A stretch of DNA of 64,000 bases from Octopus vulgaris (lineage: Eukaryota): positions 42,780,001-42,844,000 of the forward strand of contig OX597829.1 of the NCBI GenBank assembly GCA_951406725.2, given 5' to 3'. Positions 12,289-54,200 of this stretch are shown here, in pieces; the stretch's first letter is position 1; every line of letters begins with the position of its first letter. The notes beneath the pieces are model-generated. The model worked only from the letters and a program-made list of their open reading frames with translations, searched no databases and was not told where the DNA came from. The position numbers and the translations under genes are program-made.

Positions 12289-12796
12289 AATACATATACA
12301 TAGTTACACGCGCACACCCATACACGCACACATATCAGTTGAATAAAATTAAAGCATGTTCTGAGTCCTTGTACTACAGTTGTCAAGATTTCAACTGTCA
12401 GTTAAATACATTTTGAAAAGCTGATGATTATTACGAACGTATGAAAGCGTTAATAAAACTTTATGAACATTACAAAATATTTTTTTATGTTTAACAAACT
12501 TCAACATTAACAAAAAAATATTTTTTTAAATACCATAATAAAAAAATGTGAAAACCAGACCATGTTTTAACACATTATTCAACTGATGTGTGTATGTGTA
12601 TGCATGCGTGTGTGTATATATACATATATATATATATATCATAAGGGACTAAAGCCATCTGAATATGGCTAGGGACAGGGCAGGGTGGTGGGGGTGTTAC
12701 TGTTGCATTTAGCCCCAGGCGAACATCGACGTCACCAGAAAGGCTCGACACCATCACGGTGTCCTTATCCTGCAAAGGGAGGTAATTCCCCGATGA

Positions 12797-12868
12797 AGCG
12801 GAAACCACACACGGACCATGGTTTCAAGGTGTATTGCCCATCGTCGGCGTGTGGTAGGCTTCCGCTTC
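12797..12868 (-). ncRNA. Type I hammerhead ribozyme (inverted copy)
   Basis: Reverse complement of the 13087-13160 fold; predicted cut after C at 12814 on the minus strand. Confidence 0.8.
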
Positions 12869-13086
12869 CTCGACGAATTCTCACTCTGCAGGATATTCAT
12901 ATATAGATTTTCAAGCAAAATACATTTGCTGATTTCGGCTTTAGTCCCTTATGTTATCGAGCAGTTACTGTCTATATCTCTTTTAGAGAATTATTATTGC
13001 TTTCTCGAACAGATTTTCGAAATCAGCAAATGTATTTTGCTTGAAAATCTATATATGAATATCCTGCAGAGTGAGAATTCGTCGAG

Positions 13087-13160
13087 GAAGCGGAAGCCTA
13101 CCACACGCCGACGATGGGCAATACACCTTGAAACCATGGTCCGTGTGTGGTTTCCGCTTC
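13087..13160 (+). ncRNA. Type I hammerhead ribozyme, unit 1
   Basis: Stem I CACACG/CGUGUG extended by GAAGCGGAA/UUCCGCUUC. Core CCGACGA (13108-14), stem II GGG-CAAUACA-CCU, then GAAA, palindromic stem III ACCAUGGU, and GUC^ after 13141. Confidence 0.85.
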
Positions 13161-13446
13161 ATCGGGGAATTACCTCCCTTTGCAGGATAAGGACACCGTG
13201 ACGGTGTCGAGCCTTTCTGGTGACGTCGATGTTCGCCTGGGGCTAAATGCAACAGTAACACCCCCACCACCCTGCCCTGTCCCTAGCCATATTCAGATGG
13301 CTTTAGTCCCTTATGTTATCGAGCAGTTACTGTCTATATCTCTTTTAGAGAATTATTATTGCTTTCGAACAGATTTTCGAAATCAGCAAATGTATTTTGC
13401 TTGAAAATCTATATATGAATATCCTGCAGAGTGAGAATTCGTCGAG

Positions 13447-13520
13447 GAAGCGGAAGCCTACCACACGCCGACGATGGGCAATACACCTTGAAACCATGGT
13501 CCGTGTGTGGTTTCCGCTTC
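13447..13520 (+). ncRNA. Type I hammerhead ribozyme, unit 2
   Basis: Identical to unit 1; predicted cut after 13501. Confidence 0.85.
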
Positions 13521-13806
13521 ATCGGGGAATTACCTCCCTTTGCAGGATAAGGACACCGTGACGGTGTCGAGCCTTTCTGGTGACGTCGATGTTCGCCTGG
13601 GGCTAAATGCAACAGTAACACCCCCACCACCCTGCCCTGTCCCTAGCCATATTCAGATGGCTTTAGTCCCTTATGTTATCGAGCAGTTACTGTCTATATC
13701 TCTTTTAGAGAATTATTATTGCTTTCGAACAGATTTTCGAAATCAGCAAATGTATTTTGCTTGAAAATCTATATATGAATATCCTGCAGAGTGAGAATTC
13801 GTCGAG

Positions 13807-13880
13807 GAAGCGGAAGCCTACCACACGCCGACGATGGGCAATACACCTTGAAACCATGGTCCGTGTGTGGTTTCCGCTTC
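13807..13880 (+). ncRNA. Type I hammerhead ribozyme, unit 3
   Basis: Identical to unit 1; predicted cut after 13861. Confidence 0.85.
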
Positions 13881-14166
13881 ATCGGGGAATTACCTCCCTT
13901 TGCAGGATAAGGACACCGTGACGGTGTCGAGCCTTTCTGGTGACGTCGATGTTCGCCTGGGGCTAAATGCAACAGTAACACCCCCACCACCCTGCCCTGT
14001 CCCTAGCCATATTCAGATGGCTTTAGTCCCTTATGTTATCGAGCAGTTACTGTCTATATCTCTTTTAGAGAATTATTATTGCTTTCGAACAGATTTTCGA
14101 AATCAGCAAATGTATTTTGCTTGAAAATCTATATATGAATATCCTGCAGAGTGAGAATTCGTCGAG

Positions 14167-14240
14167 GAAGCGGAAGCCTACCACACGCCGACGATGGGCA
14201 ATACACCTTGAAACCATGGTCCGTGTGTGGTTTCCGCTTC
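14167..14240 (+). ncRNA. Type I hammerhead ribozyme, unit 4
   Basis: Identical to unit 1; predicted cut after 14221. Confidence 0.85.
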
Positions 14241-14442
14241 ATCGGGGAATTACCTCCCTTTGCAGGATAAGGACACCGTGACGGTGTCGAGCCTTTCTGG
14301 TGACGTCGATGTTCGCCTGGGGCTAAATGCAACAGTAACACCCCCACCACCCTGCCCTGTCCCTAGCCATATTCAGATGGCTTTAGTCCCTTATGTTATC
14401 GAGCAGTTACTGTCTATATCTCTTTTAGAGAATTATTATTGC

Positions 14443-14474
<32 letters not shown>

Positions 14475-14599
14475 TATGTATATATGTATATATATATATA
14501 TATGTATATATATGTATGTATGTGTGTGTGTGTGTGTAACCACATGTGAATCGTTGGCGCTTTTTCCCTCTATCTTCCTTTTCTATTAGACTTTCCTCT

Positions 14600-20487: not shown

Positions 20488-21470
20488 ATTGCTGTAACCT
20501 GAGAACTGCATGCGGTGAATGAAATATTGTATGTGTCTCTTTAACTCTGTGGGCTCGCACATGCATGACACATTTCTCATTATTCTGACGAGGTCTGCCA
20601 TCAAAATATTGAATTTGGCATTGTCCGCAATGGCTGAGTTCCGGTGGATCAAGTATTTTGAGGCCATAGGTTTGGCATAGTATGAATGAAGGATTTGGGT
20701 TTTATTATTCACAATTTCTTGCCCGAGTTCGGTGTCTAGTACTGGTAGTCTATGGTTGGGGTGTTTAGTGGGGTAGTCTATTGTGACCTTAATACTCTGG
20801 TGGAGTTATCTATTTGCTGGATGCTCTCCATAGTATTAGTTTCTATTACTATATCAACATTACTCTATTGTGGGGGTGCCTTTACCACTATGTTGATATC
20901 ATCAACATAGCGAAAGTACATGTTTACGAGTATGGAGTTCTGTGTTAGGCGTTCTTTAAGCCTTCTGTCCCACCATACCAGCGATACTAACACCGATGGC
21001 TGTCCCCTCGTCCTGGGCATATATTTTATTATTAAACTTAAACGTGTGGCCTTTTAGGGTAATTCTTATACTAGCTCCTAGTGCATGTGCGATCATTTTC
21101 TTTATCTGATGGACATTTGCGGGGCTCCGTATGGCTCTGGTCCATCCGCGCCATCTTTCTATATGTGTCTTCCTAGCCATAGAAGTAATTGTGGGCGGTC
21201 TACCTCTTAAACATCTACTGGGGCAGAAACTACTAGGATTATGTTTATCTAAGTATTCAGTATTACATGTCAGTCTAAGTAGGAGGCCCAGTTCTTCTGT
21301 GTTGACATTACAGAACTCCACCTGACTCTCATTGATCATCTCCACGCACTTCTCCACCGCAAAATCTACGTCGATCGATGGGTATAGGGATACCACATCC
21401 ATGCTACCCACCATACATCCTGTCAGATCACAAGTGGTGTTACAGTCATCGATCCTGCTGAGGAGATCTA
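20488..21470 (-). mobile_element. Penelope-like element reverse transcriptase fragment (probably Neptune-type), flanked by (ATT)n
   Basis: GSMDVVSLYPSI...GRPPTIT...HTFKFNNKIYAQDEGTAIG, then YFRYVDDINIVV (about 20885-20920), LPVLDTEL and YAKPMAS thumb motifs; frameshifted. Confidence 0.85.
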
Positions 21471-21480
21471 TTACTATTAC

Positions 21481-22820: not shown

Positions 22821-22857
22821 GTATATACATATATATATATATTCATGTATATATATG

Positions 22858-23925
22858 TTGCCGCACTTGCCCTTACCTCTCCAACACCACGCTCCTCACC
22901 GGCACCCATCATCGACTCCTTCACCTGCACCTCCAGCAATATCATCTATTGCATCTCCTTCTCTCTGCCATTCCCTGTATATCGTACAAACGGGACGCCG
23001 CTTGGCTGACCGGTTCGCAGAACACCTCCGAGACATCCGTCTCGCCAATGACACTCCAGTCTCACGCCATTTCCGCTCCACCGGTCACTCCTTGCAACAC
23101 TTGTCTGTGTTCCGATTGTCCTTGCACAGAGGCCATCCGGATTCCCGCTTGCGCCGTGAACAGGGATTAATCTTCTCTCTTCGCTCTTTTACGCCATTTG
23201 GGCTCAACTGCCCCCCCCCTTTTCATCTAACCTTCCCCCGACTCCTACTTCTCTTCAGTCCTTCATCTTTTCACCCCTACTCTCTTTCCCTCCTCTTACC
23301 TTCTTTCTCTTCTTCCCTCTTCTCCTTCTTCTCTCTTCTTCCCTCTTTCCCTTCTCTCTTTCTTTCTGCTCCCTCACTCCCCTTCTCTCCCCTCTCCTCC
23401 CCTCCACCTCTCCCCTCTCCTCCCCTCCACCTCTCCCCTCCCCCTTCTCCTCCTCTCCCTCATCCTCCTCTCTCCCGCTCATCTCCCCCCTGTCTCCCCC
23501 TCATCTCCTCTCTCCCCTCCCCTCCCCTCTCTTCTCTCCCTTCTCACTCTCCCCACAACCCCCACTCTACCCCAACCTCCAGCCGAACCCACACCCCACC
23601 TGGGCTTTCCCCACTCTCGCCCTCCACCTCCCCACAACATCACACCACACAACACTACACCATACGACATTACACATCACATCACAACACACCACCCACA
23701 CACCCATCCCCAGATCCCCACACCCACACATACATACACGCATTTTTTTCTCTCCTTGTTTCTCTCCTTGGTTTTTTTCCTGTGTATCTTTCTGTCGAAG
23801 AGCGTAGGCTCGAAACGTAAAAGACTTGTTCTATTTCTATTCCTGAGCGCCATACTAATACATTTGTTTGTTTGTACTCCACCTGCCTTCGTCTTTTGTT
23901 TATTTTCATAAAGCTTCCCGTTATA
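22858..23925 (+). mobile_element. 3' end of a Penelope-like element: GIY-YIG endonuclease remnant, pyrimidine tract and pLTR with hammerhead, flanked by (TA)n
   Basis: [12 protein letters not shown] and SLYIVQTGRRLADRFAEHL...RLRREQGLIFSLRSFTPFGLN; hammerhead at 23787-23824. Confidence 0.85.
23787..23824 (+). ncRNA. Minimal type I hammerhead, A6U variant
   Basis: UCUUU-CUGUCGA-A-GAGC-GUAG-GCUC-GAAA-CG-UA^AAAGA. Confidence 0.65.
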
Positions 23926-29410: not shown

Positions 29411-30277
29411 CTATGTCACCGACTGCCGGCAATGTCCCGTTTCTCTTCCTCTTCCTCTTTTTTCCTTTTCAACTGAGGAAGGGTGCGTCTCCTCCGTGAC
29501 CGGGAGATTCGCCTTCTCCTCCTCATCCCTAGGATCCTTCGGTGAGCACCCATTGTTGCTCACCTTCTTCCTCTTTCGGCCCCTGTTTGATGAGTCCTCC
29601 GTTTCCTCGGCCGCCTTCATTCCCTCTTCTACAGAGGTCTCACTCGACTGCTCCGGGACCTTATTTTGTTCCCGGGGACAGTTTTTCTTTATATGGCCGG
29701 ACTCCAGACACCGATGACACCAAGGGGGGCGACCCTCAAGTATCACCGGGAACATCCACCCGGGCATTTTCAAAAAATCTGGAAAAACCAGATTGGCTGA
29801 TTGGGTCCAAAGGGTCAAAACAGCTTTTGACCCAACCCAATCAGCCGCAGGAAGAACTTTCACATCAAGAAGCTTGGTCCCGCTGCCACCCAGACCCCGG
29901 CGGATAGTCTCCCCTATCCACTCGGGTCTTATCCCGGGTGGCAACCCGCAGACCCAAGCTTTCAACCTCCTCCCACAATACGTGGGAAGAAACAAAATTT
30001 CCTCGCCCTCCAAAGGTTGACAAGCAAATTTGTGAGCCATTTCAGGGGTATCAAATAGCAACCATACCGTTGCATAACTGACACCCCTGGAAATGAATTT
30101 AATTGTTGGCAAATACTCTGCCAACTCCTTTTCAATTGCCGTCTTTTCGAATCGAGCGATGGTGTCGAGTGACTTGGAGTAGGTTCTCAACACCACTGCC
30201 CTATCTTCACGGCCTTTCAACCACTTTTTGGGCGGTATAATCTCCCACTCCAAAACTTTGTCTTTTTTCATTGCCAT
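29411..30277 (-). CDS. LINE ORF1p-like (gag-like) protein with CCHC zinc knuckle, about 288 aa from MAMKK
   Basis: Open frame; RRM-like region, then EGRPPWCHRCLESGHIKKNCP (CX2CX4HX4C) as in Tx1/L1 ORF1; basic RGRKRKK stretch. Confidence 0.75.
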   Translation of the reverse strand: MAMKKDKVLEWEIIPPKKWLKGREDRAVVLRTYSKSLDTIARFEKTAIEKELAEYLPTIKFISRGVSYATVWLLFDTPEMAHKFACQPLEGEEILFLPTYCGRRLKAWVCGLPPGIRPEWIGETIRRGLGGSGTKLLDVKVLPAADWVGSKAVLTLWTQSANLVFPDFLKMPGWMFPVILEGRPPWCHRCLESGHIKKNCPREQNKVPEQSSETSVEEGMKAAEETEDSSNRGRKRKKVSNNGCSPKDPRDEEEKANLPVTEETHPSSVEKEKRGRGRETGHCRQSVT

Positions 30278-32872
30278 GTTTTTTTTTTCTTTTTTGAAAA
30301 TATATTCAAAATAAAACTTAAAAAGCGATAAGAAAAAAGAAATCAAAAGAAAGTCACAATAAACAAAAAGGAGAAAGTCAAATAAAGTTTAGAAGAAAGT
30401 CAATAGTTCAGGAACACAGCAAAAAAAATCTTCCGGCCATTCGGTACTTCCGGCCTAGGTTGAACCCGGAACGCCACAACTGGAACACAACTTCCACAAA
30501 AATTGATATACAAATTGTTCAATCTTCGGAGGCAAAGGCACTCCCCCAAACAGCAGTTCTCACAATTATTAAAGTTCTTCAAAAGGCACAATACAAGCAA
30601 TAATTCTCATAATTAAGTGAGAAAAATATTCACTCAAAATAAATCGAAGACGAATACGCCCCCAAACAGAAATTCTCACAATTCAGCGAGAAAAAGTATT
30701 TGCCCCATGTAGACAGAACCAGAATTCTGAATCCAGTAGGAATTCCTGCCTGTACAAAAACAATTCTCAACAAAAATTTCCACTGGACCCAAAAGCCAGA
30801 ATCTTACCTTACAATGGAGCTTCAAAATTTTTTCAATTCGAGACGGCTTCAAAAGCATGTCTCACCTCTTTGGTGCCGAACACCGCAATTATTCGCACAT
30901 GCGCAGTGGAAGCAAGCTTCTTCCCACATAACCATACCTGTGCCCATATATACCGCAATGATGCGGAAGCATTCCGCTCGTTGTTTCGTGGTAATCCGGT
31001 CTTACTTATCACGTCCAGTCGTATATTATAAAATAGATTATCCCGTGTATAATTCTCTGTAAGGGGATACGGTGTACTTCAGGTGGATTCCGTTGATTTT
31101 TCCCGATATAATGGATAATCTTGAATAAAACCGTTGGTTACATATTGAGACTGAAAGCGTTAGGTATTTGCAGATATTGACTCTCTCTCTCCCTCTCTGC
31201 GTTTCTTTCCCTCTCTCTCTCTCTCTTTCTCTCTCTGCGTTCCTCATTCTCTCTCTCTCTCTGTGTTCCTCATTCTCTCTCTCTCTCTCTCTCTCACGTG
31301 CTGCGTTTTGGTCTTTTCTCTCTGCGTTTCCTTCTTTCTCTTTCTCTCTCTCTCCCTCTCTCTCGACGTTTTGCTCTCTCTCTTTCTCTCTCTCCCTCTC
31401 TCTCGACGTTTTGCACTCTATCTCTCTCTCTCACTCTGTTTTCATACTTCCTATTTCGAATATTCGTTTGGGTGGTTGGCATTTTCGGTATTGTTTGAAG
31501 TATTAGTTACTTAGATAGAGTGTGATAAGTCATAATTTTGCAAAATTCAGGTAGAATTTCGAATTTAGCTATAGAGCTATTTGCATTATCATCATCATAA
31601 AAAGGCACTATCTGGCCCCATGCCGTCAAAAATGACGGCTAATTGTGGTATTTTATATATAAATATGGATGGCAAATCAAATTAATACACTTGTCAATGT
31701 TATCTAGTGATTGGTTGTCTTTTGAGATGTGACATCGATCATCGGTTGTTATTGTAAGAACGCTGGTTCACACATACAAACAACATTCACATACATCTCT
31801 TGAACACGCACACATATACACACACACACAGAGTTGAAATGCTCCTACTACCAGTTTGACATCACCCCCCCCTTCTTTCCTTCCTTCTTTCCTTCCTTCT
31901 TTCCTTCCTTTCTTTCTTTCTTCCTTCCTTCCTTTGTCATTCATCTGTTGTGACGGAGAAAAACACAAGAAGGGGATGATATAAAATAAACTGGGTTTTT
32001 TTTTCTGGTTACTGTCCAGTGTATGGGAAATATCAAAAATTTTAATGTAAATAAATATATTATGTCATATCCTCCTCCCCCTGAACTGCCTACACCCTAC
32101 TCCCAACTACTTCTTTCTTATTTCTTTATTTCCCACAAGGGGCTAAACATAGATGGGGACAAACAAGGACAGACAAAAGGATTAAGTCGATTATATCGAC
32201 CCCTGTGCATAACTGGTACTCTTTTCATGTATGTAATATATATAGAAGCGTCTGGTCCCTAAACGGGTCTGGCGGCTGCATTGCATTAAAATGTTTTGAA
32301 TATTTCCTGAGAAAACTTCGCTCTTTTGTGCCAGTGGGATAGTGGAACACATCTTTGATGTAGGATGCTGCTGTGTGGGGAAAGATGATATTAAGGAATG
32401 GTGCAAAAGCCTCACAAACTTTTTAGACGTTTATGATACACATGCTTCAGTGTCCTCCGAGCCAACCCGGGAAGAGGAGCGTAATGATCACATTGTTTCA
32501 GAAAAGCTCAGATCACGAAATAAGGTGGATTTTTCCTGGACCCGCTGAGTTAAGGCGACGAACTGGCAGAACCATTACCGTGTGGGACAAAAATTGCTTA
32601 GCCTCATTTCTTCGGGACAGTGAGTTAAGAGTTGAAATGCGACTGGGGTCGATTAGCCATTCGTCCTTTTGTGGTCGACAAACCACTCGTTGAGAACTGG
32701 AGCAGAAGTAAAAGAACTAATGGTAATCCCGAAATTGTGGAAAAATTTATCAAAATCATTCTCATCATTATAATTTAAATAATCAATAATAAAATAGCGA
32801 TTAGCGTGTTAATCGATGTAATCGCTTAATCCCACTTACCAATAAAACGTTAGATTTGCACCTTAAGAAACC

Positions 32873-42394: not shown

Positions 42395-42808
42395 TATTTC
42401 TTTACTGCCCACAAGGGGCTAAACTTAGAGGGGACAAACAAGGATAGACGAAGGGATTGAGTCGATTATATCGCCCCCAGTGCGAAACTGGTACTTTATT
42501 TATCGACCCCGAAAGGATGAAAGGCAAAGTCGACCTCGGCGGAATTTGAACTCAGAACGTAACGACAGACGAAATACCTATTTCTTTATTACCCACAAGG
42601 GGCTAAACATAGAGGGAACAAACAAGGACAGACGAAGGGATTGAGTCGATTATATCGCCCCCAGTGCGAAACTGGTACTTTATTTATCGACCCCGAAAGG
42701 ATGAAAGGCAAAGTCGACCTCGGCGGAATTTGAACTCAGAACGTAACGACAGACGAAATACCGCTAAGCATTTCACCCGGCGCGCTAACGTGTCTGCCAG
42801 CTCGCCGC
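42395..42808 (-). mobile_element. SINE family B, tandem dimer
   Basis: Two head-to-tail copies on the minus strand. Confidence 0.85.
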
Positions 42809-43125: not shown

Positions 43126-43540
43126 GGCGGCGAGCTGGCAGAAACGTTAGCACGCCGGGCGAAATGCTTAGCGGTATTTCGTCTGTCGCTACGTTCTGAG
43201 TTCAAATTCCGCCGAGGTCGACTTTGCCTTTCATCCTTTCGGGGTCGATTGAATAAGTACCAGTTACGCACTGGGGTCGATATAATCGACTTAATCCGTT
43301 TGTCTGTTCTTGGTTGTCTCTTCTGTGTTTAGCCCCTCGTGGGTAGTAAAGAAATAGGTATTTCGACTGGTGCTACGTTCTGAGTTCAAATTCCGCCGAG
43401 GTCGACTTTGCCTTTCATCATTTCGGGGTCGATAAATTAAGTACCAGTTACGCACTGGGGTCGATATAATCGACTTAATCCGTTTGTCTGTCCTTGTTTG
43501 TCCCCTCTGTGTTTAGCCCCTTGTGGGTAGTAAAGAAATA
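43126..43540 (+). mobile_element. SINE family B, tandem dimer
   Basis: TSD ggttatcagaact; internal junction aaagaaata|ggtatttcg. Confidence 0.9.
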
Positions 43541-43858
43541 GGTTATCAGAACTGGAGTTAGAGACCATGAAAAGAAGGATGTCAAGTGATGATGGGCATA
43601 CGAAAAACGAAAGTGGCATAATGAAAGAAACTAACAGTTGCCTACAAGAATATACTGGCGCTAGCCGTGAAAGAATCGAGATCAGTGAGTATTTAAACGA
43701 CGAAGACTAGATGATGATAAGCAAAATTTTGGATCTACTAAATGCAGAAGAGACAGAATTTAGATGCGGCTGACACTTTCCATCATACGCAGCAAAATAA
43801 GCTGTGAGATTTCATATGATGATGATGATGATGAAGTGGATTATTATTATTATTATTA

Positions 43859-53255: not shown

Positions 53256-54200
53256 GCGGCGAACTGGCAGAATGGTTAGCACGCCGGGCGAAATGCTTTG
53301 TGATATTTCGTCTGCCGTTACGTCCTGAGTTCGACTTTACCTTTACCTCCTGAGTTCGCCGAGGTCGACTTTACCTTTCATCCTTTCGGGGTCGATTAAA
53401 TAAGTACCAGTTACGCACTGGGGTCGATGTAATCGACTTAATCCCTTTGTTTGTCCTCTCTGTGTTTAGCCCCTTGTGGATAGTAAAGAAATAGGTATTT
53501 CGTCTGCCGTTACGTTCTGAGTTCAAATTCTGCCGAGGTCGACTTTGCCTTTCATCCTTTCGGGGTCGATAAATTAAGAACCAGCTACACACTGGGGTCG
53601 ATATATTCGTCTTAATCCCTTTGTCTGTCCTTGTTTGTCCTCTCTGTGTTTAGACCCTTGTGGATAGTAAAGAAATAGGTATTTCGTCTGCCGTTACGTT
53701 CTGAGTTCAAATTCTGCCGAGGTCGACTTTACCCTTCATCCTTTCGGGGTCGATTAAATAAGTACCAGTTACGCACTGGGGTCGATATAATCGACTTAAT
53801 CCGTTTGTCTGTCCTTATTTGACCTCTCTGTGTTTAGCCCTTGTGGGTAGTAAAGAAATAGGTATTTCGTCTGCCGTTACGTTCTGAGTTCAAATTCTGC
53901 CGAGGTCGACTTTGCCTTTCATCCTTTCAGGGTCGATAAATTAAGTACCAGTTACGCACTGGGGATCGATGTAATCGACTTAATCCCTTTGTCTGTCCTT
54001 GTTTGTCCCTTCTATGTTTAATCCTTTGTGGGCAATAAAGAAATAAGAAACGTTAACACGCTAGGCGAAATGCTTAACGTTGTTTCGTCTGTCTTTACGT
54101 TTAGAGTTCAAATTCCGCCGAGGTCGACTTTGCCTATCATCTTTTCGGGATCGCTAAATAAAGTACCATTTGCGTACTCGGATAGATCTAATCGACTAAT
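53256..54200 (+). mobile_element. SINE family B tandem array (about 184-bp units, 4-5 copies)
   Basis: Junctions aagaaataggtatttcgtctg near 53491, 53675 and 53858. Confidence 0.9.

Follow-up and report, generated by a model that had tools for sequence, protein, structure and literature searches.

A tandem array of 360-bp hammerhead-ribozyme units, carried by a 64,000-nucleotide stretch of Octopus vulgaris DNA (the window), belongs to a young and dispersed family which, by the sequence-level definition, is a new member of the animal non-LTR retrozymes, and whose copies bear the insertion footprint of Penelope-like elements (PLEs). The form of these copies makes it very probable that the retrozyme is moved by a PLE. 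The more specific reading, in which it would be copied in trans by the reverse transcriptase (RT) and endonuclease of a local PLE from a circularised 360-nt RNA, is one that we regard as likely.

In the available text of Cervera & de la Pena 2020 (PMC7229834) and of bioRxiv 10.64898/2026.07.22.740005, the animal non-LTR retrozymes share with this family non-coding tandem units of 150-450 bp with a GC content below 50%, one type I hammerhead per unit, a self-paired monomer and co-occurrence with PLEs, and in the axolotl HHR_Amex2, as in the window retrozyme, stem II begins with a U.U mismatch. Unlike the published ones, the young window subfamily has a U4C core, and its insertion footprint, candidate helper and hybrid are read from the genome. 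No published cephalopod retrozyme or retrozyme-PLE hybrid was found in a search of main texts that covered subscription papers thinly (supplements might list the family), and the words 'inverted', 'microsatellite' and 'cephalopod' are absent from the main text of PMC7229834.

The window insertion and its hammerheads

An earlier note, made from the letters of the window, had described about 4.2 near-identical 360-bp units at 12937-14443, and both the period and the identity are reproduced (period 360, 4.2 copies, 99%). The unit has a GC content of 46.7%, and the array carries no long open reading frame. The extent of the element had been seen only in part: the direct array stands, but an inverted arm at 12640-12937, which carries a fifth hammerhead, had been overlooked, and the whole insertion covers 12640-14443, with (TA)n at both flanks. 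Likewise, the (TA)n setting described in the note is present, but it flanks the element on two sides only once the inverted arm is included. Units are numbered here so that unit position 1 is window position 13299, and the predicted cut falls after unit position 203. The features read from the sequence are:

12625-12639 (start approximate), no strand: left (TA)n target tract
12640-12937, minus strand: inverted 5'-truncated arm, unit positions 80 through 360 to 17
12814-12847, minus strand: fifth hammerhead core with stems II and III, in the inverted arm, predicted cut after 12814
12937-14443, plus strand: direct arm, 4 units (362, 360, 360 and 360) plus 65 nt
13102-13147, plus strand: first type I hammerhead, with its core at 13108-13114, the private G at 13116 and a predicted cut after 13141
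13462-13507, plus strand: type I hammerhead 2, predicted cut after 13501
13822-13867, plus strand: type I hammerhead 3, predicted cut after 13861
14182-14227, plus strand: type I hammerhead 4, predicted cut after 14221
13142-13501, plus strand: first of three predicted monomer RNAs of 360 nt, with extensive self-pairing
14400-14443, plus strand: 44-nt PLE-type tail, unit positions 22-65, between the family's two fixed 3' ends
14444-14521, no strand: right (TA)n target tract

The inverted arm (298 bp) matches the unit on the minus strand at 300 of 302 aligned bases and overlaps the direct arm by 1 nt, at 12937. Its 3' end is the short end of the retrozyme family, in which the tail is absent, and the last partial unit of the direct arm is 65 nt long. 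Units 2-4 are identical, and unit 1 has a 2-nt insertion which lies upstream of the first predicted cut, so that the three cut-to-cut monomers are exactly 360 nt. The GUC sites ending at 13141, 13501, 13861 and 14221 all match the sequence, and the exact 360-nt spacing of the predicted cuts, from which the note had derived three monomers, agrees with it as well.

A type I hammerhead motif is found at all five positions of the window (four direct, one inverted), and the stems, core and GUC site that had been listed are there. The core CCGACGA was read correctly, but it is a U4C variant, and a U.U mismatch opens stem II. The young subfamily has a C3-C4 core, older subfamilies have U3-U4, and there are older relatives with the canonical CUGAGGA core. 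According to the text available for PMC3088659, U4C 'considerably decreases activity in vitro' and viroid infectivity is still possible with it; among PLE hammerheads, both U3-A8 cores and a loop III of the dimer type have been described (in the part of PMC4209133 available). The U4C core of the young subfamily would thus probably cut slowly, and we infer that cleavage would be slow and dimer-dependent. In Xenopus, 8 of 9 retrozyme dimers failed to cleave (Li, Clavereau & Pollet 2026, bioRxiv 10.64898/2026.07.22.740005, available in part). Folding of the monomer is far better than that of its shuffles (z = -5.63, 0 of 100 shuffles as good), and the lowest-energy predicted fold of the window copy is different from the hammerhead, which lies above it by 13.5 kcal/mol in the window copy and by 8.8 in the family type, according to nearest-neighbour energies; these give -11.2 for the loop III homoduplex.

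A search against Rfam returned no hammerhead in the window, where the only matches were microRNA-like hairpins below the gathering scores. This miss is weakly informative, since no hammerhead was found by Rfam in the canonical-core relative L095 either. Covariation among genomic copies says more. It was examined on 22 variants, hand-picked across subfamilies and including two distant relatives, with a structure taken from the window copy, which biases the result toward itself over slid controls: in this alignment 94.3% of the cells are paired and 9 of the 19 pairs are changed on both sides, two values that none of 500 shuffles reaches. The compensatory changes fall in stems I and II, in the 3-8 core pair and in the palindromic loop III, and they indicate that the hammerhead fold is under selection among the relatives. 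Every one of the 22 variants has C-G, U-G or U-A as its 3-8 pair and AU, UA or UG at the centre of loop III, so the 8-nt self-complementarity for the dimer is retained. Thus, stem covariation and core conservation among genomic copies, to which the note had looked, held up on the 22 variants, and its palindromic, dimer-type stem III is supported by the conservation of loop III.

Family size and insertion footprint

The genome searched comprises 2.80 Gb in 227 contigs. The core pattern has 1,327 exact matches in it, as opposed to 2 for the reversed control, and in the best 40 of 1,027 candidates of a DNA search the full-length units are nearly all 98-100% identical, on many contigs, which bears out the earlier description of a young, dispersed retrozyme-class element. 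Exact junctions with (TA) number 769 for the tail end and 630 for the short end genome-wide, from which we put the family at about 800 or more insertions. Sister retrozyme families (L202-L221; 296 matches to one motif, period about 352-360) are about 70-85% identical and have the same two ends and other palindromic loops; sister or older relatives are also found at L095:4520-4600 and L098:4527-4607. The unit was present in 20 of 24 listed public runs, which come from 11 studies and 5 organism codes, and among the listed runs with the unit none is on record as RNA. Contigs that close into a 360-nt loop turn up in presumed RNA runs, but since presumed DNA runs yield them too, they are uninformative on RNA circles.

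The way in which these copies end is what connects them to PLEs. We mapped 143 loci, of which 13 were set aside as very short, old or complex, or as truncated at the edge of the retrieved sequence, and 130 insertions were left. Among these, 102 are two-armed and inverted, and in 99 of the 102 one end lies near unit position 21 and the other near 65, the tail end being selected in the 79 of the 143 loci that were chosen by it, and diverged copies in which the BLAST alignment broke at a unit boundary being scored as short ends. In 20 extra loci chosen by the short end, all 12 two-armed insertions end at 58-65 on the opposite side. The 3' ends adjoin (TA)n in 216 of 232 cases, compared with 3% of random 10-mers; insertions end directly in this tract, and terminal direct repeats are absent apart from the unit itself. 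The two arms overlap at their junction by at least 3 nt in 11 of 61 scorable cases (5% expected), and they end at an equal unit position in 17 of 102 (permutation mean 7.3), which is partly a hairpin alignment effect.

In the sources as available, an inverted truncated copy with a tail on a single end is the PLE pattern (Craig et al. 2021, PMC8557442), and the tail extends from one internal RT start site to the other (Frangieh et al. 2024, PMC11167929). The inverted pairs with one short end and one tail end match both descriptions, and we therefore speak of a PLE-type footprint; mobilisation by PLEs, which the note had brought up, gains support from it. The likeness to the PLEs with an endonuclease (EN+), such as Neptune and Nematis, includes the inverted 5'-truncated copy, the single-end tail, the two internal start sites and the AT-rich or (TA)n targets (PMC8557442; PMC11167929, both available in part), as well as a hammerhead with a palindromic loop III and U3-A8 variants (PMC4209133, likewise). 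Unlike those elements, the retrozyme has no ORF, has a 44-nt tail instead of one of 30-40 nt, forms up to about 23 head-to-tail units and has no sequence similarity to the pLTR of the local PLE. No RT or endonuclease ORF of its own was found in any of the insertions retrieved. A 648-aa frame in L162, a retrozyme copy inside a LINE-like RT gene (G000:C1:202701150-202705650) where the frame is open from the arm into the RT, was rejected as an ORF of the element: it belongs to the LINE-like host, which is the insertion target.

An ordinary minisatellite or an assembly artefact with a chance hammerhead look-alike would be in line with the lack of an Rfam match. Such an origin is extremely improbable, however, given hundreds of dispersed insertions with fixed ends, a covariation that exceeds all 500 shuffles and the occurrence of the unit in public runs that span 11 studies and 5 organism codes, and we consider it ruled out by the fixed-end footprint together with the 22-variant covariation.

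The RNA template

In the mechanism that we propose for this retrozyme, arrays would be transcribed, adjacent hammerheads would join at their palindromic loop III and cleave, probably at a slow rate, and 360-nt circles would be closed by a host ligase. The endonuclease of a PLE, a candidate enzyme with an observed footprint, would then nick both strands of a (TA)n tract, and cDNA would begin at two fixed internal sites of the RNA, 178 and 222 nt past the cut, one per nick. As the copies themselves show, most arms continue past the cut, in the extreme case 15 times, before they end at scattered positions, and the two cDNAs are joined 5' to 5', giving an inverted two-armed insertion. Both arms would usually derive from a single RNA, for which a monomer circle is the simplest candidate, and a switch to another RNA would happen now and then.

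At least one predicted cut site is crossed by 157 of 232 arms, the longest crossing 15, and only 6 of the 232 stop within 5 nt of a predicted cut. Arms that cross the cut and rarely stop there imply a template that is either continuous across it or jumped cleanly. Clean jumping would mean that the RT, each time it reaches the 5' end of a cut linear monomer, resumes at the 3' end of that monomer or of a different one, and a covalent circle would be unneeded. Template switches do occur (in the hybrid L190, described below, and in distal haplotype switches), and there is an excess of first-pass truncations at unit positions 211-300, immediately 3' of the cut; however, this peak coincides with the base of a long hairpin, the stops near the cut are few, and the units join at the cut without indels in nearly all of the 310 covering units. 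Repeated jumping is thus, in our judgement, quite improbable.

The evidence for a monomer template comes from variants that are private to an insertion. In a sample of 97 young insertions out of 137, with 237 near-full units, units of one insertion diverge by 0.24%, its two arms by 0.22% and different insertions by 2.2%. Of 60 multi-unit young insertions, 7 have a variant that every covering unit shares and that predominates in none of the other insertions sampled; 4 of these 7 fixed private variants were absent from all the others. In the window, the nearly private variant is an A>G at unit position 178, in stem II: G stands at 13116, 13476, 13836 and 14196, where the family has A, and it is present in all five hammerheads and both arms. 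It has 7 exact matches in the genome, namely the 5 of the window and 2 in one short insertion, and the assembly holds no other long source array with it (the source may be absent from this haplotype). As this A>G is common to all five hammerheads, copying round one monomer is suggested. The note had taken the non-integer copy number as evidence for a circle, which proves to be a weak argument, the ends being set by two fixed starts and by scattered 5' truncation; variants common to all units of both arms are better evidence for a monomer template and outweigh it.

A single pure circle does not account for every copy. The arms agree in 43 of 55 informative two-armed insertions and differ at a template-level site in the other 12, L107 is a mosaic of haplotypes, and L108, L089 and L015 switch haplotype; the 12 differing pairs and the L107 mosaic are incompatible with one pure circle. 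L107 (G000:C14:72706500-72710750) has an arm of 11 units that differ from one another in A>G at 138, 150 and 272 and in A>T at 249, and it may be useful for mapping template switches or per-unit editing. Its arms differ beside the junction, and fold-back copying of one arm from the other was rejected on that ground. In L108 (G000:C3:70060060-70063990), the arms, of 501 and 3420 nt, share a 120-nt ending of the alternative haplotype at nearly the same position.

From the sequences, a monomer circle with occasional switches fits best, with linear multimers as the alternative. In the latter, the retrozyme would be a non-autonomous PLE derivative copied from uncut linear read-through multimers, its hammerhead being slow or protein-gated and its arrays homogenised by local tandem amplification. 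In the parts of the sources at hand, PLEs insert in vitro without the need for hammerhead cleavage (Frangieh et al. 2024, PMC11167929), unprocessed RNA is the main substrate of the anole PLE in vitro (PMC11167929), and local amplification is favoured by Li et al. 2026 (bioRxiv 10.64898/2026.07.22.740005); the U4C core with its stable alternative fold, the mosaic arrays L107, L108 and L089 and the differing arms of L015 also speak for multimers. Against them stand the fixed private variants, which all units of both inverted arms have in common and for which the assembly holds no larger source array, the up to 15 cut crossings, which would require length to be regained despite 5' truncation, and the continued conservation of core and palindrome. 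On balance we find read-through multimers unlikely, and a circular monomer template probable.

Template-level variants also hold a lead concerning editing. Coleoid cephalopods carry out extensive A-to-I editing, and on the sense strand A>G makes up 10 of 35 template-level sites compared with 11 of 132 single-unit sites (Fisher p = 0.003). At template level it also compares with T>C (10 vs 5, p = 0.10) and with C>T (10 vs 2, p = 0.02), and the A>G sites 138, 139 and 157 recur across several backgrounds. RNA editing as the source of this excess is only a lead, and A>G could instead be favoured by selection for pairing. If true, it would be a route by which RNA edits enter the heritable DNA of a repeat family.

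A candidate helper and a hybrid

In a GIY-YIG search, the best 150 of 6,136 candidates included many copies of a 781-aa frame. One locus, L118, is a full PLE: it has direct repeats of 456 bp and, besides a frame of 359 aa, the 781-aa frame with RT and GIY-YIG, in which RVT_1 lies at 259-442 and GIY-YIG at 685-772. Upstream of the GIY-YIG domain there is a CX4CX2C finger, within the CX2-5CxxC pattern of Neptune and Nematis, and by its sequence the L118 PLE appears to be of the type found in these two. Three copies of its 781-aa ORF are 99.4% identical, and elements of this type border on (TA)n either with a short end or with a 38-nt tail. They carry a U3-A8 hammerhead-like motif with a palindromic loop, spotted by eye and counted at 609 exact matches; scans for PLE hammerheads that demanded C3 or a perfect stem I gave no match. 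Several repeats in the 3' region of the element (L118:5760-6215, on G000:C16) contain TGACGTC and CCAAT-like boxes and may act as a promoter for the downstream copy, and the retrozyme unit has one TGACGTC, at position 283.

The two families meet in the hybrid L190, which has the tail end of the retrozyme on one side and the short end of the PLE on the other. The retrozyme joins at unit position 14 directly to 270 nt of PLE repeat, with no TA between the elements, and the chance expectation for such neighbours is about 0.02 among 100 listed ends. L190 is the sole hybrid in about 157 insertions examined: no further one was found in the best 40 of 1,776 candidates, nor in 29 PLE loci, 20 short-end loci and 49 flanks. 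L190 may instead have arisen as a nested insertion accompanied by a small deletion.

Such a nested insertion is part of the competing view that the helper is another (TA)n-targeting PLE, for instance a Naiad. Naiads, which also occur in Octopus, target (TA)n and make tails (Craig et al. 2021, PMC8557442, in the part available), the GIY-YIG scoring covered the best 150 of 6,136 candidates, and the retrozyme unit has no DNA similarity to the 781-aa PLE; indeed, BLAST gave no significant similarity between the unit and 23 GIY-YIG loci, the candidate PLE included. On the other hand, L190 obeys the rule of one short and one tail end across both elements, with a join that lacks TA and a chance expectation of about 0.02, and the retrozyme and the 781-aa PLE families are equally young. 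Another helper is thus possible but rather doubtful, and we consider it quite likely, with somewhat more assurance than for the circular template, that the L118-type PLE family is the helper of the retrozyme.

Two other routes to a helper were abandoned: a 901-nt contig starting with the tail turned out to be one old copy running into unique sequence, and a loose-end motif yielded the sister retrozyme families. The window itself contains fragments at 20956-21480 (minus strand) and at about 22850-23170 (plus strand) which, by their motifs, resemble a decayed PLE RT and a GIY-YIG endonuclease. It also contains a 325-aa open frame with a CCHC zinc knuckle at 29411-30388 (minus strand), probably a LINE-like ORF1, and a 184-bp SINE-like repeat in tandem, up to 3.8 units, at 42395-42762, 43173-43543 and 53358-54045.

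Non-autonomous elements are known for the Chlamys PLEs, such as MRC1, but in the available part of PMC8557442 these are elements of green algae with a helper-like 3' end, reported without canonical hammerheads. For animal retrozymes, mobilisation by PLEs has been proposed from co-occurrence and pLTR similarity (PMC7229834; Li et al. 2026, as far as these texts are available). The broadest reading of our data would be a first matched animal retrozyme-helper pair, in which an intact Neptune-type PLE primes twice and rolls round a 360-nt circle and A-to-I edits are written back; taken as a whole, we hold this to be a tentative and rather unlikely combination. In the same partly available sources (PMC7229834; Li et al. 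2026), the enzyme that spreads animal retrozymes, as well as the copying of circles, had been proposed earlier and not shown. The present locus contributes a candidate helper and a hybrid: with an intact young PLE protein, two exact predicted starts, a (TA)n target and a 360-nt template, the spread of a retrozyme by a PLE would become testable in an assay such as the one described in the accessible part of PMC11167929.
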